From IMG/VR virus record IMGVR_UViG_3300033418_000001, positions 1-64,000 of that record: DNA of 64,000 nt, one strand, 5' to 3'. The position numbers and the translations under genes are program-made. The DNA is from a virus. Under the pieces are notes generated by a model, which had not been told where the DNA came from, did no database searches, and saw only the letters and a list, made by a program, of their open reading frames with translations. Positions 5,784 to 59,985 of the stretch are shown piece by piece; positions within the stretch are counted from its first letter, which is position 1, and each line of letters starts with the position of its first letter.

Positions 5784-7922
5784 CTACGCCGCGAGGAGCG
5801 TTTCGTCCAAAACGGTGACAGCCTCGCGGTCCACCACGGTCGTGGCCGGGTGCCGGTCGTAGAGGATGGTGGCGCGGTGCGGCGTCTGGAAGGGCAGCAG
5901 GATGCCCACCATGAGCGAGGTCGTGACCGGGGTGAGGTCCACCCCCGAGGCCATGTTGTCGCCGTGCAGACCCCCGGGGAGGAGGTCGAAGAGGGGTTGG
6001 AACAGGGCGCCTTCGGCCACAGCGGACGGCAAGCATTGCCCGTCGAGCAGCGTGGCGACCGCCCCGGGAAGCTCTTGCCCCGCCGCGTCGGCGTCGATGA
6101 CCGGCAGACCGGGCAGGAAGACCACCTGCGCCCCGAGCAGCGTGCCGCCGAGGGAGACCTGCGTCTCCCCATCGAGCAGCGCCGTGGAGGCCGTCAGAAC
6201 GACGCCAGAGGCGGTGACATCCGAGGGGTAGAGCAGGCCCGGGAGGATCGTGCCGGTGACAGGCAGCGTGACCCCAGAGGCGTCCTTGCCGATCCCCACC
6301 GTCCCCGGCAGGTAGACGGTCGTCGGGTAGAGGACTTGCCCGTTGGCCGTGGCATGGACCGGGTTCTGCGCCGACACTGACCCCGCGAGCAGGCTCGCGT
6401 TTGCAGACATCTGCACACCGGCCTTGGACGAACTGGCCTGCCCCGCCCCTGCTAGGGTGGTGGCTGTGACGGTGATGGTCTGCCCGTCCGCCGTCTTGCC
6501 CACCCCGGCGACGCCATCGAGCAGGGAGGTCGTAGCCGCGACCGTCGCCCCCGGGGCCGTGCTGTCCGCGCTGCGCGCCCCCGCGAGCAGCACAGCGGCC
6601 TTGGAGATGGTGGCGCCTGCCGCCGTGGAGGACCACGACACCGTGCCCGTGGTGGGCAGGGAGGCCGTCACCGTCAGGGTTTGGCCGTCCGCTTGGTCGT
6701 CCACCCCCGGGGCGAACAGGATGCCGTCGATCAGCGACGCGGTGCGCGACAGCACGGCGCCATTGGCCTGCCCGTCAAGCTGCGTGGTGCCTTGGCCCGC
6801 GATGAGGCTGACAGTGGACGTGAGCAGCGCCGCGCTCTGGTAGGCGATGGTCGAGGTCGCCGCGACCACCGAAGCCGTGACCGAGACCGTCTGCCCTTCC
6901 GCCGTCGCCCCGGCGGTGCCCGGGATGAAGGTGACGTTGCGGGCGAGGGTGATGCCCCCCGCCGAGGAAGCGCCCGTGGCGCCGCCTACCGTGGGCAGGC
7001 TAGTCGTCGCGGTGAGGGTGGTGCCGTTGGCCGTGGCACCCCGGGCCACCGTGCCCACGGTGGGCATGGAGATGGTGACCGTCAGGGTGACGCCCGAGGC
7101 CGAGGCCGGGTAGTTGGCCGACCCCGCCCCCACGGTGGCCAGAGACGACGCCACGGTGAACAGCGTGGCCGGTACGGTGATGTCCTTGCCCGTGCACTGC
7201 CCCGGCAGGAAGGACACCGTGCCGGTGAGGGTGGCCGCAGCCGTAGTGGACGCTGCGGACCCCGCTCCCGCGATCAGCGAAGCCGTGCGCGAGAGGAGCG
7301 CGCCCACCCCCGTGCCGAACACGATGGGCGTGCCGCCGAAGCGCGTGGCGGTGACCGTGAGCGTGACACCATTGACCTGACTGCTTGCGGTCCACGTGCC
7401 AAGGATTTGGCCCGCCGTGGCGGGGAGCGTCTGAGCCGCAGTCGTAGAGGAGGCTTGCCCTTCACCCGCGATCAGCGAAGCGGTCTGCGTGAAGGTGATG
7501 CCGTCGATCCCGATGCCCCCGGTGCCCGGGGTGAAGCTCGCGGTCGCGGTGAGGGTGGCCCCGGCGGCGGTGGACGCAGCTTGTCCTGCCCCGGCGAGCA
7601 GCGATGCGGTGTCGGTGAGAAGCTGACCACTGGCGCTGTTGGTGGCCTGAATCTGGCCATCGAGCAGGCTTGCGGTGTCAGTGAGGGTGACCCCGGCGGT
7701 GGTACTGGTGGCAGTCTGCGCCCCCGCGATCAGCGATGCGGTAGCGTCTAGCATCTGCCCCGACGCCCCGGCCCCGCCCCCCACCGTGGCGAAGTCGATG
7801 TTCGCCGCGTTCCATGCCGGGGCACTGTACGCCCCGTCGCCGGAGAACTCGATGTTCCTCAGCAACGGCAGGAGGGTGGCGCTGACGGTGAGGACAACGC
7901 CATTGGCGGTGGCGTCCGCCAT
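5784..7922 (-). CDS. Ala/Thr/Gly-rich repeat tail fibre protein
   Basis: Many ~20-aa repeats A.G.TLT.TASL(L/I)(A/D)G; tail context. Confidence 0.65.
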   Translation of the reverse strand: MADATANGVVLTVSATLLPLLRNIEFSGDGAYSAPAWNAANIDFATVGGGAGASGQMLDATASLIAGAQTATSTTAGVTLTDTASLLDGQIQATNSASGQLLTDTASLLAGAGQAASTAAGATLTATASFTPGTGGIGIDGITFTQTASLIAGEGQASSTTAAQTLPATAGQILGTWTASSQVNGVTLTVTATRFGGTPIVFGTGVGALLSRTASLIAGAGSAASTTAAATLTGTVSFLPGQCTGKDITVPATLFTVASSLATVGAGSANYPASASGVTLTVTISMPTVGTVARGATANGTTLTATTSLPTVGGATGASSAGGITLARNVTFIPGTAGATAEGQTVSVTASVVAATSTIAYQSAALLTSTVSLIAGQGTTQLDGQANGAVLSRTASLIDGILFAPGVDDQADGQTLTVTASLPTTGTVSWSSTAAGATISKAAVLLAGARSADSTAPGATVAATTSLLDGVAGVGKTADGQTITVTATTLAGAGQASSSKAGVQMSANASLLAGSVSAQNPVHATANGQVLYPTTVYLPGTVGIGKDASGVTLPVTGTILPGLLYPSDVTASGVVLTASTALLDGETQVSLGGTLLGAQVVFLPGLPVIDADAAGQELPGAVATLLDGQCLPSAVAEGALFQPLFDLLPGGLHGDNMASGVDLTPVTTSLMVGILLPFQTPHRATILYDRHPATTVVDREAVTVLDETLLAA
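6402..6415. repeat. Dispersed palindrome copy 1 (TGCAGACATCTGCA), intragenic
   Basis: Exact match read from the sequence. Confidence 0.9.
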
Positions 7923-7923
7923 G

Positions 7924-8568
7924 TCACGCTCCCGGCGTCAAACGATCAAGGCGACCGATGTTCCAAACGTCTCCCCCGGGGAGGTCGAAGGCGACGACGG
8001 CGTAGCCCTCGGACTTGGTGGGATCGAGGCCGGTGAACGTGTAGTCGCCGTTGGCGTCCGTTCGCACCATGCCGATGATCTGCTTCGTCTGCCGCCAGAT
8101 CAGGCACACCTCCACCCCCACCTGCGCTACGGTGGCAGCGGTGACCTTGCCAGTGATCATGCCGTTGGTGGCCATACCATCGTTGAAGTGTGAGCCGTGG
8201 GGAGCCGTGACCAACTTCGCTGTGACGACAGCATACTGGTTCATGGGGACACCGGCCACAGTATCCTGCCACAGGCCGAGACTTCGCATCACGCGAATCC
8301 GCGCACGCATCGCAGCGGAGTTGGTGATGATGTCGTGCATAAAGCCCGCGCCCCCCGTGAGAGGGCGGAAGCCCACGTCCACCTGCTTGTTGTAGTGCCA
8401 CACCGCGCGCACGTAGGCGGTGTTGGCGATGACGGTGCGCGTGCCCGCCACGTTGCCCTCGCGGAAGGTGCCCGGGTGCGTGCGGAGGTACCGCTTCTTG
8501 GCAGCGGTGTAGATCGCGTTGCCCGCGATGTCATCCCGGTTGGTGCCAATAGCCCCTTGGTCCGCCAT
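7924..8568 (-). CDS. Tail fibre-associated protein with C-terminal Cna-B/prealbumin-like domain
   Basis: ITGKVT...VRTDANGDYTFTGL...YAVVAFD; TGATG overlap with the upstream gene. Confidence 0.55.
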   Translation of the reverse strand: MADQGAIGTNRDDIAGNAIYTAAKKRYLRTHPGTFREGNVAGTRTVIANTAYVRAVWHYNKQVDVGFRPLTGGAGFMHDIITNSAAMRARIRVMRSLGLWQDTVAGVPMNQYAVVTAKLVTAPHGSHFNDGMATNGMITGKVTAATVAQVGVEVCLIWRQTKQIIGMVRTDANGDYTFTGLDPTKSEGYAVVAFDLPGGDVWNIGRLDRLTPGA

Positions 8569-9494
8569 CACACATCCCACGTGTCCGAAGTTTCGATGCA
8601 GCACGCCCCATCATTCGGCCCCCACACCACTTCGTAGCTGCGCCCCGCGAGTACCCCCCCATTGGCCGGAACCGTGAAGGTGGTACCGGCGGGGAAGTAG
8701 GTGCGTACATGGCACGGCACCACCATCCCCGGCAGATAGATGCGCGGGCCAAAGACCAACTCGTACAGGTACACCCGTGACAGCACCATGCCGCCACGAA
8801 TCGGACAGGGGTATGCCCTACCATAGGAGCCGAGGTCCGTGCCGGTCACTCGATGCTCCAACATGTCTACGAGCTTGCCAGAAGCCACAGCCCCGGGGAA
8901 CTTGTTCCACGAACGGAACAGGTAGTGCCCGCCAACGGCAGTGGCCCACGTGGCGTACCCCCAGAGCAAGTACGGCACACCTGACGCAGTGGGGGCAGCG
9001 GTGTTGTTGGCGATGAAGAAGGAGTTGTGGATGCCCTGATCCCCCGCGTTGATGGACACCCCATCCCCCACTGCCGTCATCTGGAATAGCGCGTTGACGT
9101 AGGTGAAGAGGTAGAACGCACGCCCCGTGGCGATGAAGAGGTAAGGCCGCTGCGTGGCGTCCGCCGTCTGACTCTTCCACAGGTAGTGACCCCCGGGGAA
9201 GGCGATTTCGTTGGGGATTTGCCCGTACCCGGTCAGTGCCCCGGTGGACTGTTCGAACGGGCGCACGCGAGCTAGTGTGGTGCCCGTGTCGTCGATGGAG
9301 AAGCAGACTTGATTGCCCGCAGGCGCCTTGTAGGCGGCGGTGTTGGTGCCCGTGTAGACCTTGGTCCACCCCGCCGTGGTGACGAGGCAGAAGTCCAACA
9401 CCGCGATGGCTTGCCCGATCTGCCCCGTCAGACTGGGGGCACCCCCGGTGTCAGCCCCGGTAGCCCACCCTTTGCGTACCAGATAGACGGGCAT
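8568..9494 (-). CDS. Tail fibre-related protein (paralog of 9498..10667)
   Basis: GAPSLTG..G..IAVLDFCLV...GWTK...N.AAYK; ends IETSDTWDV. Confidence 0.6.
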   Translation of the reverse strand: MPVYLVRKGWATGADTGGAPSLTGQIGQAIAVLDFCLVTTAGWTKVYTGTNTAAYKAPAGNQVCFSIDDTGTTLARVRPFEQSTGALTGYGQIPNEIAFPGGHYLWKSQTADATQRPYLFIATGRAFYLFTYVNALFQMTAVGDGVSINAGDQGIHNSFFIANNTAAPTASGVPYLLWGYATWATAVGGHYLFRSWNKFPGAVASGKLVDMLEHRVTGTDLGSYGRAYPCPIRGGMVLSRVYLYELVFGPRIYLPGMVVPCHVRTYFPAGTTFTVPANGGVLAGRSYEVVWGPNDGACCIETSDTWDV

Positions 9495-9497
9495 GGC

Positions 9498-11036: not shown

Positions 11037-11050
11037 TGCAGACATCTGCA
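11037..11050. repeat. Dispersed palindrome copy 2 (CA type), intergenic
   Basis: Exact match; 2 nt after the stop ending at 11053. Confidence 0.9.
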
Positions 11051-14677: not shown

Positions 14678-14973
14678 GACATCCTCTCGATGGTGAGGCG
14701 GGTGGACATCTTGGCGCCCTCGATGGCGCTGTCGATGGCCACGATCTTTCCCCGCCACGCTTCGCCCTGCAACGAGTCGATCACCTCCACCGTCTGCCCG
14801 GTCTTCAGGCCGGGGCGGAAGTTTGCAGACATCTGCACAGAGCGCATGTAGGCACTGCGGTCGATTTCCACCTGCCCCCGTGACAGCGCCGGAGCGAGGT
14901 CCGTGAGTAGCGGTTCGATGATGTCCTCGCCGCGCCGGTCTCCGGCGAAGCGCGACACGAAGATGTCGATCAT
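14674..14973 (-). CDS. Tail-tip protein
   Basis: Coupled overlap; PGLKTGQTVEVID...GKIVAI resembles phage tail hub C-terminal barrels. Confidence 0.5.
   Translation of the reverse strand: MIDIFVSRFAGDRRGEDIIEPLLTDLAPALSRGQVEIDRSAYMRSVQMSANFRPGLKTGQTVEVIDSLQGEAWRGKIVAIDSAIEGAKMSTRLTIERMS
14824..14837. repeat. Dispersed palindrome copy 3 (CA type), intragenic
   Basis: Exact match. Confidence 0.9.
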
Positions 14974-15471: not shown

Positions 15472-18400
15472 CTATGCCCCTGTGTCTTCCATGAGGATCA
15501 GGGCGTGTGTGTCGCCCACCCCGGTGATGTGGTACGTGTAGACCCACGAATTGTAGGTGACCGTGGCCAAGGCCCGCCCGTAGTTGGTGGCGCTCGATGC
15601 GTTGAGGACCGACGATCCCGGGGTGTAGGACAGCCCGCCCAGAGGTGTGGACCACCACTTGATGGTGGTGAGGGAGTCGATGGGGTGCGACAGCCCCGCC
15701 TGCCCTTCCACGAACTCCACCATCTCCTCGTACTCCTTCCACTCCTGCCCGATGTAGACGAGGTTGGAGGTGAGCGGCGCCTGCGTGTTGATCAGGCGGA
15801 AGGTGCTGCGGATCGGCGATGGGTACACGTAGACCTTGCCCGCCGTGGGACTCAGCGTCCCCGTGGGGTCGCCCTTCTCGTCCCTACCACCATCGGGGAT
15901 CAGGTCCGCCTCGTACTCCAAGCGATCCGCGAAGGCCGTCTCGCCCTCGCTGATGCGGAACAGGTTGTACTCCTCGCGCACCTCATGGTCCTCGGACACC
16001 GACAGCGTGTCTTCGGCGTCAGTGAAGGTGTGGTCCACTGAGGCCGTGGCGAAGCGATGCGCGGCCACCGGGTAGAGCAGGCGCACGGTGAGGTTGCCGT
16101 TCTTCTCCGCTTGGAGGATGGCACCCATGGCGCCGAGCAGCGTGCGCGCCGCTTCCAACGGCGTCACGTCTTCGAAAGCGATGCGGTGCATCGGCAGCAT
16201 CCAATCGGGAGCGTTCCACGTGGTGATGGCACGCCCGAGGATGGTTTCCACCGCCGTGCGGCACGACACCGGGGCCAGATCGTTGGTGTAGCTGATCTGT
16301 TCCGCGAACGGCGCGTCGAGCAGCACGCAGTCGGACTTTGCAGACATCTGCACGTCCACCTTGGCAGGTCCGCTGCGGTCGATGGTCTTCCCGGTGACGA
16401 TCATCGTGTACTCCTCGCCCCCGAGGTCCAACACCATCACGTCGTAGTCGTTGATGCCCACGTAGTCGTTGATGTCGGCGAGGCGGATGCGCGCTTCCCA
16501 CGCCACGTTGTCTTCCGACTGCGACACCACGGCGTCCGCTACCGGCACCGTGCGCCCGTTCACCGTCACCGACGCTGCCGAGGCCACCAGTGTGGCCGTG
16601 CCTTCCATGAGAGACCAGAACGCTTTGCTTTCCTGCCGCGCGACGTTGGTGGACTTGATGTCCCACTCCATGCCGTGCCCCTTCTGCACGGTGTAGGAGG
16701 CCGAGTAGGGCGCCACGTGCGCGGCCTGCGGCTGTCCCATCAGCGAGTACGGGGACTCCATGGCGACCGTCACGTAGTCGCCCCCGTCGTAGGGGACGCT
16801 GTGAGGCTGCGCCACCGGCACGTTGTTCCACAGGCGGTACTGCACTTCGTGCGCGAGGCTGAGGGGCAGCGAGGCCGAGTAGTCCGCTTGGTTGTCCATG
16901 GCCACGCTGTATTGCAGCGGGGCTTCGTGTTGGACCGCCACTCGGCACCCGTAGGATAGCGAGTGCGTCGCCGCCACGCGGGTGCTGTAGGTGGCCTCAT
17001 GGGCAGCAGTGACCGGCGTGTAGGCCGTCACGTCCCACTGCCCGGTGAGCAGTTCGATCAGCGCCCCGTTGAAGGTGCTGTTGACGTTCAGTAGGACTTC
17101 CATCTGCACCTCAGCTAGATCGAGGAAGACATTGGTCAGGTACCACCCTTGGTAGTCTGACGGCATTCCATAACTCGGGGGCACCAACCCGTAAGCCATG
17201 CCCATGTACGCGAACATGTCCCGCGTACCCCAGTCCCGAATGATGTTGGCGCGGTGCCCGGGGCTGTACCACCACGCATCGAATGCCTGTTTGGGGGTAG
17301 GGAAAGTGTAGTCGTTGAGAATGACACCTGATCTGGCCGAGGGGTTCGCCGGGGTATAAGCGTTGATGCCAGCGAAGTAGAGCAGGATGTTCTCACCCCC
17401 CACCCCATCCCGACTCCCGGCGATCACGTGGCGCTGCGCGGCGGTCTCGCGCCCTACCGGAAACCCGGCATCATCGTGTTGGAAGATGCGCGTCGCCGCC
17501 ATGTCCTCCGAATGAAGCTGCGCGGAATCGAGGTGGTTGGTGTAGGTGGTCAGTGTAGGCAGCAGGTAGGGCGGCAGACCGAAGTACGCGCGCTTCTCGT
17601 TGGCAAGGACTAAGAACTCCTCCAACCACGTGATCCCGTAGTGGGGCGAGGTGAGCATCAGCCCAAGCTCGTTGGTATCCGGCGTCGGTTGCGTGACACC
17701 ACCACCCCCGCCACCACCCATGATCCCTTCGTAGTCGTACAGTTCGAAGTCGAACCACAGCGCGTGGGTGTCGTTGGGGTAGCCTGTGTAGGGGCCGATG
17801 TTGACGCCGAGCAGGCCGTACAACTCGGTGTGTCCTGCGTGCGTGCCTTCGAAGTACGACGAGGCCGTGACCTTCCAAGCGTCATACAACTCCTGCGGCG
17901 TGGGCACCGTGTAGTCATTGACGATGGTGCGTCCGGTGGCCGTGTCGAGGTCGCCGTTGAGATTGAAGTCGGCCTGCAACCGCTTGAGCGTGATCAAGCC
18001 GTAGCCGGAGGCGTTCATGGAGTGCGAGCGCCGATCCACCCACGTCTGGTAACCCGCCGGGAAGGAGGCGTCTTCGGACGCGAACAGGGGCACCGCCGCC
18101 ATGTTGTCGGCGTGCGTCTGCGACACATCCTCGCTGCCGAGCAGGCGCGCGGGCGTCATGTGCTGATACAGGTTCAGACCGAGAGCCTGACGGTCTACGT
18201 TGATGCAGTCGATGAAGGCGTCGGAATAGCCCACGGACCAGTGCAGGTTGGTGATCGACTGTTCATGCACGATGCGGATCATCTTGACGCTGACAGTGGC
18301 CGTCAGCCCGATGTCCACCGTGACCGGCATGTACCACCGGAAGACGCCCGAAAAGCTCACGCTCATGGTGAGGCCGATGTCCACCGTCACCGGCATGTAG

Positions 18401-21348: not shown

Positions 21349-21362
21349 TGCAGATGTCTGCA
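21349..21362. repeat. Dispersed palindrome copy 5 (TGCAGATGTCTGCA), intergenic
   Basis: Exact match; fills most of the 19-nt gap between two tail genes. Confidence 0.9.
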
Positions 21363-27287: not shown

Positions 27288-27674
27288 CTATGCGACGGTC
27301 ATGAGCTTGATTTCCCCGGCGAAGTAGTCTTCGGCGAGGGGCACCGCTCGCAACAGGAGCGGGCGAAGGGACACGGCAGGGGCTTCATGGTGCCTGAAGA
27401 TCACGCTGAAGGTCTCCGCGCCGAGTTCAAGGGTGTAGATCGCCCCGGGCGACTGTGCAGATGTCTGCACGGCGTCGGCCATGGCCTTGGTGAGCCACCC
27501 CTGATCCTCCAAGGCGACGAGGGTGATGGGCATCCCGGCCTGCCACGTGCGCGTGTAGACGACGGGCGAGCCGTCGAGCGTCACCTGCACCTCTTGGATC
27601 ACCTGAGAGTAGGCGTAGCGTTCCACCCACACCATGTTGGGGTTGAGCGTGATGCCCGCGAGGATGATGGCCAT
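27288..27674 (-). CDS. Distal-tail-like protein
   Basis: Shortly after the tape measure; TLDGSPVV...GMPITL...GWLT...VIFRH pattern. Confidence 0.55.
   Translation of the reverse strand: MAIILAGITLNPNMVWVERYAYSQVIQEVQVTLDGSPVVYTRTWQAGMPITLVALEDQGWLTKAMADAVQTSAQSPGAIYTLELGAETFSVIFRHHEAPAVSLRPLLLRAVPLAEDYFAGEIKLMTVA
27456..27469. repeat. Dispersed palindrome copy 6 (TG type), intragenic
   Basis: Exact match. Confidence 0.9.
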
Positions 27675-34032: not shown

Positions 34033-34046
34033 TGCAGATGTCTGCA
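34033..34046. repeat. Dispersed palindrome copy 7 (TG type), intergenic
   Basis: Exact match. Confidence 0.9.
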
Positions 34047-34052
34047 AACGCT

Positions 34053-36042: not shown

Positions 36043-36056
36043 TGCAGATGTCTGCA
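36043..36056. repeat. Dispersed palindrome copy 8 (TG type), intergenic
   Basis: Exact match. Confidence 0.9.
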
Positions 36057-39185: not shown

Positions 39186-39214
39186 ACTGTAGCAACGTGG
39201 CCCGCACCTGACAA
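39186..39214 (-). promoter_or_regulatory. Putative sigma70-type promoter for scaffold/capsid
   Basis: Minus strand TTGTCA-17 bp-TACAGT with extended TG; a palindrome copy lies 2 bp upstream of the -35. Confidence 0.5.
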
Positions 39215-39216: not shown

Positions 39217-39230
39217 TGCAGACATCTGCA
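39217..39230. repeat. Dispersed palindrome copy 9 (CA type), intergenic
   Basis: Exact match; abuts a putative promoter. Confidence 0.9.
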
Positions 39231-40709: not shown

Positions 40710-42547
40710 TGGTTCGCCTCCATGATCAGCCGCAGGTAGCGGTCGCGCCGCTTCTTGTCCTTCATGTGCATGATTGCCCCGATGACGCCCTCGCCCTTGG
40801 TCCTACCGAAGGAAGAGGCGGTCATCACGTCCATCATTACCCGCCGGGGCACCACCAAGCCCATGTACTGATGATTCCATGGGTCGGGCACCGTGTGGTC
40901 CACCATGCGCGAACCCTCACGGTTCCATGCGTGGGCAAGGGGGATGCCATGCTCCGTGACGATGCCCTCCACGTAGTCTACGCGAGGGCTGTCGGGCTTC
41001 AGCATCGACTCCACGATCACGTCCACGCTGTTGTTGTAGCAGCGGTGGGGCGTGCGGATGTCGTCGCTGCCGTTCACCTCCATGGGCTTGCCGTAGCGGT
41101 GCACGAAGTCGAGACGCGGGGCATTGCCGTCCACCGCCTCGATGATCTTGCCGAGCAGGCTCTTCACCGGCTCGTCTTCGCTCACGTTGCCAAGCCGCGA
41201 CACGATGGCCAACGTCGAGATGGCGTTCATGTGCGGCGACATGCCCTCGATGGGCGAACGGTTCTTGTCCTTCAGGTAGGCGAACTCATCGGGGGCGTCC
41301 GCCACAGCGTTTTCACTGGTGGTGAACCTGCCCCTCTCGTCGTGGTTGGGGTTGAACTTCTTCACCTTCACGCGCTTCACCGCCTTGCCCGTGTGCGTGC
41401 GCCACTCGGACAGTGCGCTCACCTGATAGCCCATGGCCTTCTTGCTGCGCGGAGCGAACTCCATCAACTGAATCTCTTCGCGCTTGGTCTGCCCCAGTGC
41501 AATGAGGTTGGAACTGAAGAACAGCGGGTCGAGTTGCTTGGTCACCGCTTCGCGCGCCGCGAGCCACTTCTTCAGGAACTCCTCACGCCGACGCTGTGCT
41601 TCCTCGGGCGTGGCATCCCGCTCCACCACCGCGAGGTTGCGATCCTTCAGCGTGTGCGTGACCTTCATGCCCTCAAGGTTCTTGCGCTCGCTCGCACTGG
41701 TGTTGTTGGTGCGCTTCCACTCCAACATCTCGTTGGTGAAGCCTGCGCCATACAACTCGATGACCTTGCTGTGCAGAGCTTCGTAAGCGCCGAAGGGCAC
41801 ATCCGTTCCCGGGTAGTTGCCCGCTCCGCTGCCGTAGTACAGCGCCATCTTCTCAAGGAAGCCGTCCTTGCGTGCCGTCTCCACCATCTGCTCTGTGGTG
41901 ATGTCCCCCGCCATGTAGTCGCGGGCGAGCAGCATCGCACTGTGGATGTCCTCGGCCACCTTCTTGTCCACGGCGAAGCTGATGGTGTCCGATGTGCCGC
42001 CGCCCAAGCCCACCCCAGAGGTCTGACTTAGCTCGTCGCGGGTCTTGAGGCCATGCTTGGCCACGTCGGTGGCCGCAGTGGTCACGTGGTACAGCTTGGG
42101 CGGCAACGGCTCATACGGACTCGATCCGTTGTTGCCATAGAAGCCGCGCGCCTTGGCCGTCTTCTCGTCAATGTCGCCCAAGGAGAGGGCTTCCGACGTT
42201 TGCCGCGTCCACTCGTTGTTGAGGGCACGCTTCTGCCGCATGGCGGCATCCACCCGATCCTGCAACTCAGGAGGTGCCTTGTCGTGGCTCAGGTACTCAT
42301 CGAGCAGGGCACGGTACTCGGCAGCGTTCTCCCCGGCGAAATCGGCCCGGGTCTGATCGTAGGCATGGGCGAACTGCCCGCCCTTGGGCGAGCCTGCGGG
42401 TTCGTGGTTGGGGTTGAACTTGAGGATTGCAGACATCTGCACACCCTCTTCGTCGTCCACGAAGGTCGCAGGCGTGTCCTGCCACGGCTGCGTCTTGTCG
42501 AAGGAGACCGAAGCGAAGAAGTCGTCCATCAGCGTGTCAGTCGTCAT
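40706..42547 (-). CDS. Polyvalent protein: ART-like domain plus papain/transglutaminase-like domain
   Basis: LYHVT...GL...ISF...EWR (ART-like); CYNNS...YVEG...HAWN...VDHT (Cys-His-Asp); two KFNPNH tags. Start uncertain (42547 or the MSAILK Met inside the 42428 palindrome). Confidence 0.65.
   Translation of the reverse strand: MTTDTLMDDFFASVSFDKTQPWQDTPATFVDDEEGVQMSAILKFNPNHEPAGSPKGGQFAHAYDQTRADFAGENAAEYRALLDEYLSHDKAPPELQDRVDAAMRQKRALNNEWTRQTSEALSLGDIDEKTAKARGFYGNNGSSPYEPLPPKLYHVTTAATDVAKHGLKTRDELSQTSGVGLGGGTSDTISFAVDKKVAEDIHSAMLLARDYMAGDITTEQMVETARKDGFLEKMALYYGSGAGNYPGTDVPFGAYEALHSKVIELYGAGFTNEMLEWKRTNNTSASERKNLEGMKVTHTLKDRNLAVVERDATPEEAQRRREEFLKKWLAAREAVTKQLDPLFFSSNLIALGQTKREEIQLMEFAPRSKKAMGYQVSALSEWRTHTGKAVKRVKVKKFNPNHDERGRFTTSENAVADAPDEFAYLKDKNRSPIEGMSPHMNAISTLAIVSRLGNVSEDEPVKSLLGKIIEAVDGNAPRLDFVHRYGKPMEVNGSDDIRTPHRCYNNSVDVIVESMLKPDSPRVDYVEGIVTEHGIPLAHAWNREGSRMVDHTVPDPWNHQYMGLVVPRRVMMDVMTASSFGRTKGEGVIGAIMHMKDKKRRDRYLRLIMEANQ
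42428..42441. repeat. Dispersed palindrome copy 10 (CA type), intragenic
   Basis: Exact match. Confidence 0.9.
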
Positions 42548-45500
42548 GCTTCTTCCTCTTGGTCTTCTCCTTGCCCGCCCACCGCCCCCACACCGTGGGG
42601 TCGATGTAGCTGCCGAGAGCCACCATGCGCGTGTTGCCCAAGTGCTTGGACACCACGTCGCCCACGTGCACCCGGGCCTTGCGGTACTCGGCCTCGGTGG
42701 CAGGCTCGCCAATCTCCTTCAGCACCTTGAGCGCAGTGTACGTGCCATGCCACGTGCGAAAGTCCTTGGCCGAGAACGGTTGGCCCGTCACATCCTTCAG
42801 GTACTTGTTGACGCGCCCCTCGTTGGTGGCGAACAGCCGCTCGTCCTTGGTGGTGTGTCGCTTGCGGTTGCGAATGTACTGCGCGAGCAGCATGTCGTTC
42901 AACTCATGGCTCTGCATCACCGCGTGCTTGCCGGGGAAGTTGAAGGTGAGCTTAGTGCCCGACACCACCACGTGCCGATCCAACAGCGTGGACGCGCCGT
43001 AGGCTTTGCCCTTCTTCGTTTCGAACTCGTTCTCGCCGCCAACGCGGAAGCCCGTCTTCGACATCAGGCGCACTACTGCCGCCGTGTCCCGCTCCGCTTG
43101 CGTCTTCCCACTCAGCATGTCGTCGTGCGAGCGCCGCCGCAGCAACGGCATGGCCCCGTTGAAGTCCTTCAGGCGCGAGAACTTCTCCGCTGCGTTGCTG
43201 CCCATGGCCTCGGCGCTGTAGCGGTACTGCAACTTGCCATTGCGCGCAGTCCACGTGGCCTGCAACGGCTCCGTGGGGTCGGGGTTGAGGTGCACGTTGA
43301 TCGAGGCAGGCGGGATGGCCATGCCCTTGAGGCGTGCAGCTACCGGCTCCGGCACCTCGCTGTGATCGCCACCATAGCGCCACACCTTGTCATCGAAGTA
43401 CATGCCGGTGCCCTGCCGCCATTGAGCGAACTGGCCCCCCTTCGGCGTGCCCGCAGGCTCGCGTGGGTGCTTGCTCTCATCGAACTTGAAGGCACGGTAC
43501 GCATCGCCAATCTCGATGAAGTATTGCAGCGGCATGGTGAAGTCGCACTTCGTGACCTTGCCACGGTTCTCAGCAATGATGCGTCGAGCCACCCGTTCGA
43601 TTTCATAGGCTTGATCCGTTCCCTCTGCTCTGCGTCCGAGCGATTCCAGATGATCGAAGACGGCACGTTCGAACTGCTCCATGCCGACAAGCTGCATCGC
43701 CCGGTTCATCGCTTCCACGGTCGGCAGTTCGTCGTGCCCCTCTTGCTGCTTCGCGTTCTGGGCGGTCGTGAACCTGCCACGTGCGTCATGGAACGGGTTG
43801 AACTTGAGGATGGTCGAGAATTGATGCTTCTGGGTTCGCGCTTGGTCGGAAGTCGTTGCAGATGTCTGCAATCGAATGCGATCCAGATGCTCCTTGAACG
43901 CCCGCCGGATGGCCTCGGGGCTGAACCCGTGCCGGGGGAAGGTGGTCATCGGCACCGATGCCACGCGCTCTGACGTGTGGCTGTCGTCCCGCGCCGGGAA
44001 CGAGTACCACACCGAGGGGAAGTCCTTCTCGTCACCTGCACTGCGCCCCACCACGGGGGAGCCATAGGTGCTGCGGTCGCGGATGGTCTCGTACTCGCCG
44101 AAGTGCTTGCCCAAGGTCACCTTGTACAGCGACACGTGACTGCCGAGCGTGTAGCCGCGCTCCGGCTGTTCGAAGTCGTTCATGTCGTCATAGAAGCCCA
44201 CCACGCCATCGGCATTGCCTGCGTTCACGCCTTGGAGGCTGTTGTGCTTGCCGCTGTCGATGCGATAGACGAGGAACGATTCGCCGGGTTGGGGCACGTT
44301 CCATGAGCCGTCCGCGTTCTGCCGCTCCTCTTTGAAGCCGGGGCCGATGCCCGCCTTGTCCACGATGGGTGCAGGCGGGGGGAAGGCATCGCTGTACGCA
44401 GGGTGGTCCTTGGGCAGGTACCACCGGGGCACCTTCTCCCACTGCGGGTTGCGGTTGCGGTCGCCTTCCTTGGGCGGGCCTTGGAACTCGGCGTACTTGG
44501 GACTGGACCCCTTCATGTACATGAGGTCGTGGCGCGTGGGGTGCGACCACGGGTTGGCCGCGTTGGTGGTCCACCGGCCCCACTCGTCGCGCGGCTGCAT
44601 CTCGTCGTACTTCTTGGCCGTGGGGAAGCGCGTCAGGTACGACGGGTCGCCATAGCCCGGGGACTGCTTGAAGCCGTGCCGCTTGTACCACGCCACCAAC
44701 TGGGCCTTGGTGAGTCCCTTGCCCTTGGCCCCGGCGTCGGGGATGGGCTTGGCGTTCAAGTCGATGGCCACGCCATGCTCGTCCGCCATCTGGGTAATCT
44801 CGCGCATCAACTCGGAGGCTTCGCCCTTGCCCTTGCTGCCGTAGCTGATGATCGAGGACAGGTGCACCTGATCCATGCCCTGCCATGGCGACATGTCGAT
44901 GCCCACGTTGCGACGCAGGCGTTGCCGATCATCGAAGGGGTGCGCTTGCGAGCCTTCGATCCACTCCTGCATGAAGGCAGTGGCCTTCTCGGTGAAGCGC
45001 CCGGTCTTCGGGTCGTGGTTGGGGTTCATCTTGGTGATGGCCGTCACCAAGCCCTCCCCGTACTGGAACATGCGCTTGAAGCCATGGCGACGCTTGCGCT
45101 TCGGGCCTTGGGCAGCAGGCAGGCGTCCGCCACGGTCGAGGTCGGCCTGTGCGAGGTCTTCCTTCTTGGTGCGCGGTTGGCCGCGAGCGAAGGTGTCGTA
45201 CTCGTTGAAGTAGTGGTCGAAGATGCCCTTGATGGACTTGATCGAGGTGCGACCGCTCTCGCGGATTTCCTTCGGCTTGTCGTGGCTGTAGGTGGCCGCG
45301 AAGGCTTCGGCGAACCACTCCCGGTCGTTGACCGCCGCGTAGGTGGAGATAGCGGTCTCGCTGTCCACCTCCTGCCGCAGGCGTTGGGTGAGCAGCTTGC
45401 CATTGCGCTTGGTGCGCTTGCCGAGGTAGTCGAGTTCGCCCTGTTCGAACGCCTGCACGTGGTGGCCGAACTCATGCACGAAGATGCTGCCCACGGTGTC

Positions 45501-46106: not shown

Positions 46107-46284
46107 AGGTCTTCCCACCGGGTTGGGGTTCGTAACGGACCCCATTATCGCCCGCAGCGGGGAACCTGTGATCGAACGAGTTCATCAGGATGGTGAGGGG
46201 GATGCCGTGAGGGAACGCCGCGCAGTTGAAGGTACCCCTTTGCAGATGTCTGCAACCCATGCACATGGGCACGCCACCGATCAT
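46066..46284 (-). CDS. Small Cys/His protein (C..C.H...C.AFP.GIP...DH..P..GD.G)
   Basis: Motif typical of small ORFs in phage head modules; ATGA overlap with the XkdF stop. Confidence 0.65.
   Translation of the reverse strand: MIGGVPMCMGCRHLQRGTFNCAAFPHGIPLTILMNSFDHRFPAAGDNGVRYEPQPGGKTYGLAVRPQVQPES
46241..46254. repeat. Dispersed palindrome copy 12 (TG type), intragenic
   Basis: Exact match; read as CRHLQ. Confidence 0.9.
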
Positions 46285-48453: not shown

Positions 48454-48891
48454 TTACTTCAGGGGCTTACCGGCTCGATTCCACCGGTCGTTCAGGTCGT
48501 TCAATTCCTGCTTGTACTTGGCCCCGAGCGCGCGATCCGTCTGCGTCTTCGCCTTCTCGGGGGTCATGTCGATGCGGAACAACTGGTCTTCCAAGGTGCG
48601 CTTGCGATTCTGGTCCGCTTGGTACTCGATCTGAAGCAGCAACGCCTTCTGGGCGTCGTCCTGCTTCTTGGCCTGCGCCACCACCTCACCCTTCACCTGC
48701 TCCACCGCGTCGTTCTTCGCGTACTTGCGGTCGAAGGCTTCGACGGCGCCGAACGCCGAGGTCACCAAGCCCACCGCGATCCCGAAGAACCACACCAACC
48801 CCTTGACGTAGGGGTTGTCCCAGAGCCGTGCAGATGTCTGCAAATCGTCACCCATGGCGGTCATGGTAGCGTGGCCCTTGCCACCGATCAA
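48454..48891 (-). CDS. Single-TM coiled-coil membrane protein (holin-like or unknown)
   Basis: GLVWFFGIAVGLVTSAFGAV hydrophobic helix followed by a coiled coil. Confidence 0.55.
   Translation of the reverse strand: MIGGKGHATMTAMGDDLQTSARLWDNPYVKGLVWFFGIAVGLVTSAFGAVEAFDRKYAKNDAVEQVKGEVVAQAKKQDDAQKALLLQIEYQADQNRKRTLEDQLFRIDMTPEKAKTQTDRALGAKYKQELNDLNDRWNRAGKPLK
48829..48842. repeat. Dispersed palindrome copy 13 (TG type), intragenic
   Basis: Exact match. Confidence 0.9.
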
Positions 48892-52702: not shown

Positions 52703-52716
52703 TGCAGACATCTGCA
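52703..52716. repeat. Dispersed palindrome copy 14 (CA type), intergenic polA/portal
   Basis: Exact match. Confidence 0.9.
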
Positions 52717-55503: not shown

Positions 55504-55732
55504 GCAGGCTCACTCCCTTGTTCATGAAGGACAGCACGAACTCGCCGAGGTCGATGCCGAGGTACCGGGCCGACAGCACCGCGCCGATGGCCTTCTTCTC
55601 CTTCTTGGTGCTGACGACGGTCCACTTCACCTTCTTGTCCGAGAGGCCGAGGAAGATGCCCTCCGTGCAGAAGGTGTCGCCGACTTGGAGAGCTTGCGCC
55701 TCCGCTTGCGTGAGGGGCAGGGCGATCTTCAT
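55478..55732 (-). CDS. Hypothetical protein
   Basis: ATGA-coupled to the upstream gene. Confidence 0.5.
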   Translation of the reverse strand: MKIALPLTQAEAQALQVGDTFCTEGIFLGLSDKKVKWTVVSTKKEKKAIGAVLSARYLGIDLGEFVLSFMNKGVSLHVKAPATV

Positions 55733-56406
55733 GAGCAGAGTCCCTTCACCTTGTTGAACTTCGGCAGGGGCGTATCGAACTCGATGCCGCACCCGAGGAG
55801 GATGGCGCCCAACACCTTGTTGGCCGGGGCTTCGACGGTGCAGGGGTAGTGCCCCGACATGTACTTGAAATCGGGCTTGGCCTTGAGGGAGAGACCCTGA
55901 TCCGTGAGCTTGGCCACGGTGAGGGCGTCATCGAGAGCGGCCCCTTCCGCGCGCACCGAGAGTTGGACGCCTTCGACGCGCACCGCGATCTTGAGCTTGT
56001 CGGTCAGCGCCACGGCCACGTAGACCGAACCGGACGACGTGCCCTTGACCCTCTGGTACATGGCGCAGGCGTCGCGCAGGGGGATCACGTCGTTGGACGG
56101 TTCCGGTGCAGACATCTGCACGGGGTCCGAGGGCTTGACGTTGGCCGGGATGCCGCCCGCCTTCTTCTCGTTCTCGATTTCGGTCAGGACGAACAGCATG
56201 AACGAGTTCAGTTCCGCCTGCACCTGAGCCGGGGACGCGAGCCAGTTCATGACGAGCTTGTAGCCCTTGCTGCCGTGCCAGATGGTGAAGAAGTCGTCGC
56301 CCTCCTGCGTGGCGAGACCGAGAGCCTTACAGGTGGCGATACCGTGGGGGTCGCACCCGTAGTTGGTCAGGACGCTGAGGGACTTTTTCTTGAGGATCAG
56401 GGCCAT
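55729..56406 (-). CDS. Hypothetical early protein
   Basis: AAAGGAG RBS and a promoter directly upstream. Confidence 0.65.
   Translation of the reverse strand: MALILKKKSLSVLTNYGCDPHGIATCKALGLATQEGDDFFTIWHGSKGYKLVMNWLASPAQVQAELNSFMLFVLTEIENEKKAGGIPANVKPSDPVQMSAPEPSNDVIPLRDACAMYQRVKGTSSGSVYVAVALTDKLKIAVRVEGVQLSVRAEGAALDDALTVAKLTDQGLSLKAKPDFKYMSGHYPCTVEAPANKVLGAILLGCGIEFDTPLPKFNKVKGLCS
56107..56120. repeat. Dispersed palindrome copy 15 (CA type), intragenic
   Basis: Exact match. Confidence 0.9.
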
Positions 56407-56430
56407 GTGCACTCCTTTGCTGACAGCCTC

Positions 56431-56458
56431 ATTGTACCACAATCAGGGGGAGTGTCAA
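56431..56458 (-). promoter_or_regulatory. sigma70-like promoter
   Basis: TTGACA-16 bp-TACAAT with extended TG. Confidence 0.7.
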
Positions 56459-57246: not shown

Positions 57247-58259
57247 CACGCCGCCTTCCTTTCGATCACTTCCACCCACGTATCGGGCATCACGTAGAAC
57301 ACCTTCTTGCCCGCCGTCTTCGACTTGAGCATCTGAGCGGTCTTCAGGGTGCTGTAGCTTTGCACCGCGCCCGCCTTCTCCACCTTCACCCAATCCACCG
57401 TGGGGCCGAAGGCTTTCGGGAACAGACTGTCCGCGATGTTGACTATCGCCTTGGCTTGCGGCGTCACGTAGTGATCCTTGACCGGGTGGCAGTCCTTGAT
57501 CAGTTCCGGTATCTGGCCACTGCGCTGCACGTCGAGGATGGTCTTGATCTGGTGCGAATCGTAACCGTGGTAGGTCATCCCCTTGTTGAAGATGGGGCCG
57601 TTGTTGTGGCACAGCGCCCACGACACGTCGGTGGCCACCTCGGGGGTGATGTTGCCTTCGACCAGTTCAAGGAACACCTTGGCGATGTCGGCCCACGGGA
57701 TGCCACCGTACCCACCGGAGAAGCTTCCGTGGCGGAAGGTCCACTCGATGGCAGCAGCGTACTTGCCGAGCTTCATCGTCGGGGCGTTGTTGAGGAACAT
57801 CGACTTCGCCGCCATCGAAGACCCAGAGGAGTGCATCACGGCGTTGAAGTCCACGTAGTCGCTGCCCCACTTCGCCGCCGCCGACGCCTTGAAGGAAGAG
57901 TTGGCGTGCACGTGGCGCGACTCGCGCGAGATGATCAGGAGCAGGTAGTAGAAGAGGCGACGGGCCACATCGCTTGCCGCACCGAGGTAGAGCTTGCCGA
58001 GGGACAGCACGTCGGGCGGCAGCGGTTCATCCGGCCCGTACTGCCTGCACATCTCGGCCCACGCCGCGTTGCCCGCGTAGAACGTGAGGGCTTCGGACTC
58101 GGGGTGAACCAAAGAGCAGGAGGGCAGGTACGCTTGGCACGCCTTGACCGCATCCGAGAGGTCAACGTCCCGCATCGACTTGGCGAGGAAGAGGGGTTGC
58201 CCCTTCAGGTGCGCCAAGGTATTGGGCAGAACGTGGTAGGGGAGAATCAGCTTCGACAT
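57246..58259 (-). CDS. Hypothetical protein (RE.RH / YGG..W / D...H.NG motifs)
   Basis: AAAGGAG RBS and own promoter; conserved-looking polar motifs suggest an enzyme. Confidence 0.65.
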   Translation of the reverse strand: MSKLILPYHVLPNTLAHLKGQPLFLAKSMRDVDLSDAVKACQAYLPSCSLVHPESEALTFYAGNAAWAEMCRQYGPDEPLPPDVLSLGKLYLGAASDVARRLFYYLLLIISRESRHVHANSSFKASAAAKWGSDYVDFNAVMHSSGSSMAAKSMFLNNAPTMKLGKYAAAIEWTFRHGSFSGGYGGIPWADIAKVFLELVEGNITPEVATDVSWALCHNNGPIFNKGMTYHGYDSHQIKTILDVQRSGQIPELIKDCHPVKDHYVTPQAKAIVNIADSLFPKAFGPTVDWVKVEKAGAVQSYSTLKTAQMLKSKTAGKKVFYVMPDTWVEVIERKAA

Positions 58260-58288
58260 CTTTGGCACTCCTTTGCCGTCACAACCCC

Positions 58289-58317
58289 ACTATACGCTAG
58301 TGGCGGGAGACTGTCAA
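58289..58317 (-). promoter_or_regulatory. sigma70-like promoter
   Basis: TTGACA-17 bp-TATAGT. Confidence 0.75.
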
Positions 58318-58829
58318 CGGGGACTCAGGCCCAACCCGGTCGGCTGAAGACCCCGCCGCATCGCCCTGAGCTTGAGCCACGTCAAGTCCCACCGGGTGAA
58401 CGGGGGATCGTACTCGATCACGTACTGCTCCTGATCCTTGGTCTCGATGGCCTTGGCATGGTAGTTGGCCCGCACGTGCCCGATGGCGTTGGGGATGCCC
58501 ATGGCCTTGACGAGCAGCGCGAGGAACAGGCCCGTGCGCCCACGCCCGCCCATGCAACCGACGAACACCGCGTCCTTCGCCGCAAGGTGGTTCAGCACCA
58601 TCCACACCACCGCGTTGGTGCGGTGGAGGTCACGGGGCGTAGAGAAGTCGCCGATGGGCAACTCGATCATGGCGTCAGCCAACACCTCGGGGGCGAGCTT
58701 GACGCCCACGTAGCCGAAGGGCTTGTCGTAGTAGGGGCCACCGAAGACCACACGCCACGCGAACCCCATGGGGACGGGCATGGCCTTGGGCGGCATCTGG
58801 CTGCGTTGGAACTTGGGGTAGACCACCAC
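58314..58829 (-). CDS. Second CX5R phosphatase
   Basis: LPIGDFSTP...FVGCMGGRGRTG...AI.HVR..Y...AIET..Q. Confidence 0.85.
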   Translation of the reverse strand: MVVYPKFQRSQMPPKAMPVPMGFAWRVVFGGPYYDKPFGYVGVKLAPEVLADAMIELPIGDFSTPRDLHRTNAVVWMVLNHLAAKDAVFVGCMGGRGRTGLFLALLVKAMGIPNAIGHVRANYHAKAIETKDQEQYVIEYDPPFTRWDLTWLKLRAMRRGLQPTGLGLSPR

Positions 58830-58843
58830 GGCACACTCCTTTG

Positions 58844-59245
58844 TCAGTACCGCGTTGACATCTTGCGGTTCTGTTCACACGTTGGGCACGGGATGCTCGA
58901 TGGGACCAGACCGGCGTCGCACTTCGTGCACCCCACACCATCACAATGCTCGCACTGATCGAAGACTCGCACTCGGTTGGTGTCCCGGCACGTCATGCAC
59001 CGGTAGTTCATCGCCTCTTCCAACGCGAGCAGTTCGCCCTCGATCACGATGCTGACTACTCTGTTGCCCTCCACCATGAAGATGAAGTCTTCGTACCTGC
59101 GGTTGCCATCAGGGTGCGTGCACCGTGCTGACAACCGAACCATGTCTTGTAGCTGTTCAAGTCCGACGCCCTTATCCTTTGCCCGCGAGACAAGGCTGAG
59201 TGGGATGAGGAAGCGTCGTTGACTTTGGGGGTCGGGGCTTGCCAT
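58844..59245 (-). CDS. Protein with DnaJ-type zinc-finger repeats
   Basis: CMTC, CEHCDGVG, CTKCDAG, CPTC. Confidence 0.6.
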   Translation of the reverse strand: MASPDPQSQRRFLIPLSLVSRAKDKGVGLEQLQDMVRLSARCTHPDGNRRYEDFIFMVEGNRVVSIVIEGELLALEEAMNYRCMTCRDTNRVRVFDQCEHCDGVGCTKCDAGLVPSSIPCPTCEQNRKMSTRY

Positions 59246-59513
59246 ACAACTCCTCGCGCAAGATCACCAACGAGCGTGGTGCCTCGATGACGAGGCGGGG
59301 CAGAGCCGCCCCACCTTCTCGCGCTATTTTAGGCACACCACACGAAACATACACCCCCCGCATGATTTCGGTGGCCTTGAGGTCGGAGATGTCGAAGCTC
59401 TCGCCGTCGATCAACAGCCGCGCGTGCGAGTGCCCAGTCGAAGCGATCACCTTCACCGGGACGTGCCCGAAGTAGATCGTCTCTCCCACGTGGTAGCCGA
59501 GGATCAGTGCCAT
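59172..59513 (-). CDS. CsrA/RsmA-like RNA-binding protein (extended)
   Basis: N-terminal MALILG..VGETI..G...V.VI and C-terminal RLVIEAPR.L.ILREELY match the two ends of CsrA. Confidence 0.55.
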   Translation of the reverse strand: MALILGYHVGETIYFGHVPVKVIASTGHSHARLLIDGESFDISDLKATEIMRGVYVSCGVPKIAREGGAALPRLVIEAPRSLVILREELYGKPRPPKSTTLPHPTQPCLAGKG

Positions 59514-59514
59514 G

Positions 59515-59970
59515 TCATTTCACCTGTAGCAGTCGTTGTGCTGAAGCGGTGAGAACCCACGTGGACCCTCCCGGCAAACCCTTGCGGAACTCGGTGACCA
59601 CCACCAGTCCCTTGTAGCGCAGCACCGTGAGGTGCGAGGACACCTCGTTGGTATCGTACCCGGGCACCGGCTTCTTGTTGTGATTCACCTGTGCCGTGAT
59701 GTCGGCGGTACTCGCTGATCGTAACGCCGCGAGCGCCACCAAGCACTCCCACAATTTGGTGCCCTGCCGTGGCAGGGTCACGTCTTCCGGCTTCTCGCTG
59801 TGGTCGATGATCACGCTGCCAAGCTTGGTCTGTACCAATTTGTGCAGGCCACACAGGCATCGCAGGAACACGTCCTGATGCCCATATTCGAACCACGCCG
59901 ATTCCGAGCCGCACTTGGGACAAATCGCGCGCACCAAGACCCCTCCTTGGGGGTCCATGGTACCGCACAT
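59515..59970 (-). CDS. Zinc-ribbon plus winged helix-turn-helix DNA-binding protein
   Basis: CPKC...CLC, then L..L...ST.DI...TNEVSSHL..L..KGLV...W.LT. Confidence 0.65.
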   Translation of the reverse strand: MCGTMDPQGGVLVRAICPKCGSESAWFEYGHQDVFLRCLCGLHKLVQTKLGSVIIDHSEKPEDVTLPRQGTKLWECLVALAALRSASTADITAQVNHNKKPVPGYDTNEVSSHLTVLRYKGLVVVTEFRKGLPGGSTWVLTASAQRLLQVK

Positions 59971-59971
59971 T

Positions 59972-59985
59972 TGCAGATGTCTGCA
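59972..59985. repeat. Dispersed palindrome copy 16 (TG type), intergenic, at the start of the wHTH gene
   Basis: Exact match. Confidence 0.9.

Follow-up and report, generated by a model that had tools for sequence, protein, structure and literature searches.

KorB of the IncP plasmid RK2 has 12 O_B operators, some next to promoters and others at a distance from any promoter; the protein has a CTPase domain at its N-terminus and acts together with IncC, a ParA-type protein, and with KorA. After loading at their sites, canonical ParB, Noc and KorB spread along the DNA in the form of CTP-dependent clamps. In Cluster A mycobacteriophages (L5, Bxb1), the stoperators are asymmetric 13-mers that are oriented with transcription, lie almost all in intergenic gaps and are bound by the immunity repressor. 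In the excerpts of the report on Cluster O mycobacteriophages (Corndog; PMC4351075), a 17-bp dyad, TGTTCGG-NNN-CCGAACA, is described in more than 30 invariant copies between and inside genes; its centre is variable and its orientation independent of transcription, and these excerpts assign it neither a function nor a binder. Herein, we analyzed a quasi-palindromic repeat, TGCAGA-CA/TG-TCTGCA, in positions 1 to 64,000 of the IMG/VR virus record IMGVR_UViG_3300033418_000001. This stretch, called the window below, is the first 64 kb of the 108,443-bp genome of a wetland phage (G000; CheckV 100%, 63% G+C). The evidence indicates that the repeat is very probably a genome-wide lattice of protein-binding sites.

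All 16 exact copies that the initial annotation had located in the window, eight in each orientation, were recovered at their coordinates (Table 1), and dinucleotide-preserving shuffles of the window gave an expectation of 0.07 copies and a maximum of one in any shuffle. Across the full genome, TGCAGA-YR-TCTGCA occurs in 28 exact copies. A search of G000 revealed no one-mismatch variant of the 14-mer, no centre other than CA or TG, and no spacer between the arms other than 2. Read on the coding strand, 18 copies have a CA centre and 10 have a TG centre. The preference for T or G on the left flank and A or C on the right, first noticed in the window, holds for all 56 half-sites of the genome, with T in 26 and G in 30 at position -1 and nothing else; 47 of the 56 also have a pyrimidine at position -2. 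These conserved K/M and Y/R flanks beyond the 14-bp dyad indicate that the real site spans 16-18 bp, and the full G000 site is about YK-TGCAGA-YR-TCTGCA-MR. Eight copies are covered by contigs from four other wetland samples belonging to two studies, and the contigs carry zero changes, indicating that the motif is not an assembly artefact. When the exact 14-mer was scanned through IMG/VR, only chance singletons appeared elsewhere, in unrelated contigs of which none aligned to G000.

The copies are evenly spaced. Gaps range from 1.4 to 6.8 kb, roughly one copy per 4 kb genome-wide, and their coefficient of variation is 0.49, compared with 0.95 under random placement; 0 of 20,000 simulations were equally even. 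Stenotrophomonas phage DLP5, using its own word, equals G000 in evenness of spacing.

Fifteen of the 28 copies lie within called open reading frames (ORFs) and 13 outside them, the latter representing an approximately 4-fold enrichment in the non-coding ~12% of the genome. For the window, gene calls based on G+C content at third codon positions (GC3) place eight copies in ORFs and eight outside. The initial annotation had counted nine intragenic and seven intergenic copies. Its seven copies located 2-6 nt past stop codons (11037, 21349, 34033, 36043, 39217, 52703, and 59972) all stand, but the copy at 46241, which it had read as 'CRHLQ', falls in a frame with a non-coding GC3 of 0.56, so that the balance becomes eight to eight. 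Its further claim, that the constraint is on DNA rather than protein, is borne out by codon-preserving shuffles: only 0.11 of the 15 in-ORF copies survive when synonymous codons are shuffled. Thirteen of 16 in-ORF TGCA-N6-TGCA sites share one frame, encoding [V/L]-Q-[T/M]-S-A, and the in-ORF sites typically lie in Pro/Ala/Lys-rich or indel-rich linkers. All 14 Q[T/M]SA peptides in called ORFs have V or L in front, matching the context encoded by the motif; thus, the simplest view is that the DNA word yields this peptide as a by-product.

To place the motif among related phages, relatives were found with the capsid protein as the query, and wider sets comprised 80 loci around the PPDK-like gene and 39 loci around a superfamily 2 (SF2) helicase. 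The clade is a large group of DLP5-like phages of ~90-120 kb from wetland, soil, freshwater, and marine samples, with at least 80 loci per search, in which capsid identity falls as low as 54-62%, yet the lattice trait persists while the word changes. The same 14-mer was found in G005 (92% capsid identity), with 8 copies in 22.5 kb. Over most of the region shared by G000 and G005 the DNA is 68-76% identical, and five of 7-8 sites are exact at orthologous places. The remaining sites are lineage-specific, including one that differs by substitutions alone, and at one orthologous place the centre is flipped, the dinucleotide at 39217-39230 being TG on the coding strand and that at G005 position 10294 being CA. 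Absence or synonymous erosion of the word in close relatives would have counted against the initial annotation; the five exact orthologous sites in G005 show that it is kept. Taken together, the identical copies, the even spacing, the orthologous conservation and the in-ORF copies that neither protein sequence nor codon usage explains indicate that the lattice is under selection.

Beyond G005, other words occupy the same architecture. DLP5 (MG189906.1; loci L149 and L150) has 26 exact copies of TGCAATCAATTGCA and 38 TGCA-N6-TGCA sites, the word of G002 is TGCAACTAGTTGCA, and that of G004 is TGCAACAAATTGCA. In seven genomes, TGCA-Nd-TGCA was enriched solely at d = 6 (30, 38, 15, 69, 25, 10, and 8 sites), with 0-3 in the reversed control. 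The 69 sites of G003 are degenerate, TGCA-RNYRNY-TGCA, and their inner bases are not complementary, which fits a protein dimer and not a hairpin. The commonest form in the wider sampling was TGCAAT-YR-ATTGCA. Lineage variants had TGCAGT, TGCAAC, TCCAAT, CGCAAT, TGAACT, TGAAAC, or TGACAT arms, and one group had a 17-bp palindrome instead. TGCAGA-CA/TG-TCTGCA itself occurred only in G000 and G005 among the sampled loci; a closer relative, L120, has TGCAGATATCTGCA, with the same arms around a TA centre. The G000 motif is the lineage version of a clade-wide site, TGnAnn-YR-nnTnCA, whose inner bases are lineage-specific.

The choice of bases in and around the G000 word touches on a second property of this genome. 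Of the 64 six-base palindromes, 43 are fully absent from the 108 kb, including CCGCGG, CGGCCG, GCCGGC, and GGGCCC, each expected ~110 times, and CTGCAG, expected 36 times; TGATCA (5x), TTCGAA (4.7x), and CCATGG (3x) are over-represented. The avoidance is weaker in relatives, with 26 of 64 absent from DLP5 and 11-16 of 64 from G001-G004. C never precedes the motif because a PstI site would arise. A TA centre would make GATATC, one of the 43 absent palindromes, and we infer that CA/TG is probably the YR step left allowed by restriction-site avoidance. Both single-step intermediates of a flip between CA and TG, namely TA and CG, would make avoided six-base palindromes.

We also searched for the motif in bacterial genomes. 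In 401 sampled alphaproteobacterial genomes, the G000 word occurred in 0-2 copies each. In a Hyphomicrobium metagenome-assembled genome (MAG), a single stretch of contig C4, beyond 113 kb, contains 30 of the 31 sites together with the capsid gene and the gene of the 301-aa protein described below, identifying it as a prophage. These results indicate that the site belongs to the phage and is not a general host repeat. An exception is a Reyranella MAG (G008), in which TGCAATCGATTGCA occurs in ~30 exact copies, most of them with CG directly after the word, in and between genes on at least 14 chromosomal contigs outside its prophage (loci L275-L286), with 5 in the reversed control; this MAG has a single homologue of the 301-aa protein, in a prophage on contig C42.

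To pick out a candidate reader of the lattice, we screened 12 universal protein families for alignment columns whose residue is constant among phages of the TGCAAT class but differs in those with variant words. The gene of the candidate lies outside the window (genome 79100-80005, minus strand) and encodes a 301-aa protein (phrog_17202) homologous to DLP5 gp067, which was found in 34 of the 39 loci retrieved through the SF2 helicase next to it. The protein has a short Lys/Ala-rich disordered N-terminus (model residues 1-35), a ParB/Noc/KorB-type helix-turn-helix (HTH) domain at residues ~48-180, and a helical C-terminal part; Lys/Ala(/Pro)-rich N-terminal tails recur across the family. The AF2 model (m8ce438c252f3) has a mean predicted local distance difference test (pLDDT) score of 82.5, with 10-residue block means of 89-97 for residues 41-170. 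In VIA-align, the best match was Spo0J-parS (4umk_C; Z 9.8, root mean square deviation 2.9, 111 aa aligned), and Caulobacter ParB-parS (6t1f_D, Z 9.2), Noc-NBS (6y93_B, Z 8.5), and KorB-operator (1r71_B, Z 6.5) were also found. The top 16 matches were all ParB/Spo0J/Noc/KorB DNA-binding domains except for three Raf1 entries; P1 ParB (1zx4_A) came next at Z 4.3, and everything lower had Z of 4.0 or less. The model indicates that the 301-aa protein has a predicted HTH DNA-binding fold of the ParB type.

Pfam revealed no domain in the 301-aa protein, and a sequence-profile search of the PDB with its family returned nothing. A six-frame search of G000 found no ParB_N CTPase domain (PF02195), and a search with the PF13614/AAA_31 model alone found no ParA-type ATPase in G000, G001, G002, G003, or DLP5, although the same model matched in 14 of 14 control genomes. 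Having neither ParA nor the ParB CTPase domain, the phage is unlikely to use classical ParABS partition. No integrase was found in G000 or in three of four relatives checked.

A prediction with two copies of the 301-aa protein suggests that it forms a homodimer. The score was 0.72, compared with 0.00 for the best of 3 controls, the three runs agreed on at least 68% of contacts, and the partner pLDDT was at least 69. In calibration, 20 of 30 proteins solved as same-chain pairs reached the mark thus passed, as did 1 of 23 single-chain structures. The predicted interface is symmetric and involves helices 52-83 and the C-terminal part. ParB-family dimers have already been solved, and likeness to them may contribute to the pass. 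The initial annotation had proposed sites for a dimeric, genome-coating phage protein, and a clade-wide predicted homodimer of the ParB/Noc/KorB type that covaries with the motif lends support to that proposal.

The covariation centres on one residue. Among 480 conserved columns in the 12 universal families, only K142 of the 301-aa protein separated lattices with A at motif position 5 (A5) from those with G5 or C5. K142 was present in 22 of 23 A5 lattices among the training loci, and the residues in the G/C lattices were A, Q, Q, S, and R. The test set consisted of 49 newly fetched loci, not used earlier, which were retrieved with the core of the 301-aa protein. In this set, every R142 protein (L381, L416/417, and L428) came with the C5 lattice TGCACT-YR-AGTGCA, as did the training locus L311, so that the R142-C5 pairing recurs in four lineages, three of them in the independent test set. 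K142 loci of the test set with a readable lattice had A5, and the Hyphomicrobium prophage likewise combines a K142 protein with an A5 lattice. The pattern suggests a rule, which is not absolute, in which K142 goes with A5, R142 with C5, and A142 or Q142 with G5. On the predicted fold, K142 would lie at about the place of the parS-contacting R204 of ParB, and T139 at that of ParB G201, the position where an Arg of Noc reads a C:G pair; both correspondences are our own, drawn from the 6t1f alignment offset rather than output by the aligner. Noc R201, one helical turn away, reads the C:G pair, which is close to the centre of the Noc site (PMC7383237).

Considering the fold and the covariation together, the lattice is probably read by the 301-aa protein. 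The putative cognate words would be TGCAGACATCTGCA for the G000 protein and TGCAATCAATTGCA for DLP5 gp067.

Several points weigh against this assignment or limit it. Foldseek E-values were weak (0.6-1.6), though Noc and ParB DNA-binding domains recurred among the matches, and Z values near 8-10 are not decisive for an all-helical domain. S142 proteins are mixed, occurring with G5 (L306), hybrid sites (L298), and A5 (L423), and two K142 loci (L397 and L386) have many hybrid A5/C5 sites. The K142 pattern was noticed before the test was formalised, and one of the two validation fetch patterns contained K itself, which enriched K142 proteins. G005, a 22-kb fragment, is without the gene, and the A142-TGCAGA pairing comes from G000 alone. 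Some loci with the protein (L292 and L377) show few or no sites in 12-15 kb. The chromosomal copies of the prophage word in Reyranella also count here, as a host factor could read such sites. Finally, the reading leaves function unconstrained, and a site adjoins only 3 of the 19 strong promoters described below, 2-6 nt upstream of the -35 box.

Two binders suggested earlier did not hold up. The ORF at 59515-59970 (151 aa), taken for a winged HTH protein, had no HTH match and was present in 26 of 80 related loci. The 'ParB-like' domain near 63.1 kb proved to be a weak VapB/ParBc_2-like match (E 0.009) within a 776-aa Zeta-toxin protein found in 5 of 80 loci. Among other candidates, DLP5 ParBc gp107 was rejected as the clade's binder, its homologue occurring only in G004; the CsrA-like, gp139-like protein was set aside, and the gp140-like protein is a Zn-finger protein without a PDB match. 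A search for HTH_3 (PF01381) yielded no conserved candidate.

That a different DNA-binding protein reads the sites, whether a MerR-type protein, a lambda-O-like initiator, or a host factor recruited or titrated by the phage, is the best surviving alternative, and we consider it unlikely. Both phage proteins carry sequence-specific DNA-binding domains. The MerR-type HTH protein is encoded at genome 84255-84689. A direct search found its relatives in 5 loci; many densely latticed loci (for example L307 with 16 sites and L318 with 14) do not carry the gene, which is present in loci where the TGCA form is absent. The lambda-O-like initiator (genome 99624-100553, minus strand; phrog_9773) is universal, with a 188-aa protein and a DnaB-type helicase encoded downstream of it. 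A search within and around its gene revealed no iteron cluster, which leaves its own sites unassigned, but its recognition helix is hypervariable among phages with an identical TGCAAT lattice. For a host reader, the Reyranella copies outside the prophage speak in favor, whereas the Hyphomicrobium chromosome is essentially without copies beyond its prophage. The clade-wide site resembles LacI/GalR-type operators (TGnAAnCGnTTnCA) in its general form, and a host LacI-type protein may read the lattice; however, the G000 centre is CA/TG and not CG, and a search of G000 for a LacI-type HTH (PF00356) gave no match. Against any such reader, the motif shifts between related phages in step with a residue of the phage's 301-aa protein.

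A role of the sites as substrates of a sequence-specific DNA enzyme, through T5-like single-strand nicks, cleavage and religation by a virion-borne type IB topoisomerase (TopIB) domain, or base modification, is distinctly improbable. The 14 bp are invariant, as expected of a recognition site, and the head module includes a gene with a TopIB catalytic domain (1202-aa protein, 42537-46145). By BLAST, however, the TopIB-bearing polyvalent protein occurs only in G005 and G001, and the lattice-bearing DLP5 and G002-G004 are without it; the sites of G003, moreover, are degenerate at inner positions. DNA of phage DLP3 was reported to resist 15 restriction enzymes, from which the authors inferred modification (PMC7326821). 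Missing sites would explain much of this resistance, since the genome of the sister phage DLP5 offers no target to 11 of the 15; SmaI has 57 sites there, ClaI 21, HindIII 5, and NdeI 1.

It is still harder to see the element acting as RNA, as a short hairpin for termination, processing, or antitermination, and we regard this as very improbable. With genes on the minus strand, every copy is transcribed, its arms are able to pair, and seven copies of the window follow stop codons by 2-6 nt. The asymmetric centre nevertheless occurs in both orientations (18/10) and is flipped at an orthologous G005 site. A 6-bp stem with a 2-nt loop is impossible, leaving 5 bp closed by a 4-nt loop as the best fold, and in G003 no more than the outer 4 bp could pair. 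No U-tract (T-run) follows any copy, and more than half of the copies are in ORFs, some deep in long essential genes. Least credible of all, copies left as footprints of a selfish or recombinational process without phage function, such as a gene-converted mini-repeat or homing target, would fit their perfect identity, the relocation in G005 of the small gene beside 34033 and the flipped centre, but not the even spacing, the substitutions without indel at 46241, the reading frame preserved by in-ORF copies (13 of 16 in one frame), or the persistence of the trait over a clade this deep while the word changes.

We therefore return to the 301-aa protein as the reader. The 28 sites would be docking sites for a homodimer of this protein, a phage-encoded ParB-type protein consisting of the DNA-binding domain only. 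It would probably be unable to spread along DNA, and the lack of a CTPase domain offers a simple reason for the genome supplying a site every 1.4-6.8 kb. The sites sit in short gaps between genes if there are any and otherwise in tolerant linker codons, positions that would cost the phage least. The bound protein may mark or organise the whole phage chromosome, by compaction or by global damping of transcription in a plasmid-like state; DLP5 has been reported to exist as a phagemid. This role is our best guess, put forward tentatively and held somewhat less likely than not. The explanation as a whole seems to us reasonably likely.

A bolder version is that the lattice and the DNA-binding-domain-only ParB form a CTP-free and ParA-free self-label of a plasmid-like phage, serving either tethering to the host nucleoid for inheritance ('hitch-hiking') or compaction and insulation from host nucleases, translocases, and RNA polymerase; we consider this doubtful. 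Tethering or bridging would fit the Lys/Ala(/Pro)-rich tails, the absence of ParA and integrase, and the Reyranella chromosomal copies, a fit that is not proof.

Promoters were examined as a further context. Strong sigma70-like promoters, near-consensus with an extended -10 (TTGACA-N16/17-tgnTAnnAT), numbered 19 on the coding strand and 0 on the other. They span genome 56-105 kb on the minus strand, and those of the window are at 39214, 56458, 58317, 62039, and 62276. At 39217, only 2 nt separate the site from the sigma70-like -35 box downstream of it (TTGTCA-N17-TACAGT). With an adjoining site at just 3 of the 19, the motif was rejected as a promoter part, and promoter-by-promoter repression is not the main role. 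Several promoters have a common longer cassette (TTGACAttctccccc...gtggTACTATgRggttgtcccc).

The individual sites of the window are listed in Table 1; nearly all genes of G000 are on the minus strand.

Table 1. The 16 exact copies of the repeat in the window, with their gene context and counterparts in the relative G005.
Coordinates	Location	Frame gives	Stop codon before site	Further context
6402..6415	within 712-aa ORF	VQMSA		
11037..11050	intergenic		2 nt	next start 14 nt after
14824..14837	within small ORF	VQMSA		
16339..16352	within 1495-aa ORF (probable tape measure)	VQMSA		
21349..21362	intergenic		3 nt	next start 2 nt after
27456..27469	within 133-aa ORF	VQTSA		
34033..34046	intergenic		6 nt	orthologous G005 site kept
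36043..36056	intergenic		3 nt	orthologous G005 site kept
39217..39230	intergenic		3 nt	orthologous G005 site with flipped centre
42428..42441	within 668-aa ORF	VQMSA		indel-rich linker; orthologous G005 site kept
43857..43870	within 1202-aa polyvalent protein	LQTSA		
46241..46254	intergenic by GC3			G000-specific; aligned G005 differs by substitutions only
48829..48842	within 145-aa ORF	LQTSA		6-nt indel adjoins; orthologous G005 site kept
52703..52716	intergenic, between DNA polymerase A and portal genes		2 nt	
56107..56120	within 237-aa core ORF	VQMSA		Pro-rich linker
59972..59985	intergenic		3 nt	stop codon is that of the PPDK-like gene

Some neighbouring genes deserve mention. The gene at 34052-34349 abuts site 34033 in G000 and lies ~6 kb off, at 11797-12094, in G005. 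The 1202-aa polyvalent protein of the head module (42537-46145, minus strand) carries an ATLF-like metalloprotease stretch in addition to its TopIB domain, which is C-terminal. A second polyvalent protein, of 776 aa (62214-64544, minus strand), has a Zeta-toxin kinase domain and the weak VapB/ParBc_2-like stretch mentioned above. Between these, 55729-61977 (minus strand) is a cassette conserved in about 60-70 of 80 related loci and followed by DNA polymerase A. Its members are the PPDK-like protein, a CsrA-like protein with an insertion (59172-59513), a PTP-like phosphatase (58314-58829), a 340-aa protein, a 237-aa protein, and a GNRRYH-motif protein with a DnaJ-type CxxC zinc knuckle (58844-59245).

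In the literature, no paper containing any of the lattice words was found, and a topic search for such a lattice was likewise empty, in agreement with the initial annotation, which had not recognised the element as a described one. An evenly spaced lattice in essential genes together with a ParB-type protein lacking spreading machinery had no description in the searched literature. The present analysis adds the position-5 recognition rule, the G000-specific word, and the link to palindrome avoidance. The natural variants amount to a recognition code, in which the unique TGCAGA word and A142 make G000 one of the informative switch cases, and the cultured members (Stenotrophomonas phages DLP5 and DLP3) make the clade testable at the bench. 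If marking, ParA-free inheritance, or protection proves true, it would be a new principle in phage chromosome biology.

Among described systems, Noc with its NBS sites and ParB with parS give the best structural matches (Z 8.5-9.8). They share a 16-bp palindrome, and Noc sites are dispersed in tens. Part of the specificity of Noc comes from the helix after the HTH (PMC7383237), and its R201-C:G contact parallels the R142-C5 pairing seen here. Unlike the 301-aa protein, Noc and ParB have a CTP-binding N-domain and spread, and Noc has a membrane-targeting helix as well; their sites are found on host chromosomes, those of Firmicutes in the case of Noc, with a density of about one per 50 kb or less, whereas here there is one per 4 kb on a phage. 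KorB and O_B are alike in that a dimer of a ParB-family HTH protein meets one palindrome scattered over a mobile replicon, and the model matches KorB at Z 6.5 (1r71_B). However, G000 is without ParB_N or a ParA-type ATPase, has 28 even sites with more than half in ORFs, compared with 12 in RK2, and the sequences are unrelated.

Two phage systems resemble the lattice in its layout. Like the Cluster O dyads, as far as the excerpted report describes them, it consists of tens of invariant dyads in and between genes with orientation unrelated to transcription, a likeness of descriptive class and not of homology. The phage group, host phylum, and word differ, the Cluster O spacer is 3 bp, and neither even spacing nor a candidate protein is reported in those excerpts. 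Stoperators are likewise short sites in tens of copies, many in short gaps, and serve genome-wide silencing, whereas the G000 site is a dyad present in both orientations (18/10) despite one-strand genes, with 15 of 28 copies in ORFs and a candidate binder of the ParB type. The combination of an even lattice lying partly in ORFs with a CTPase-less ParB-type protein sets this phage apart from KorB, Noc, ParB, the Cluster O dyads, and the stoperators, none of which unites the two.

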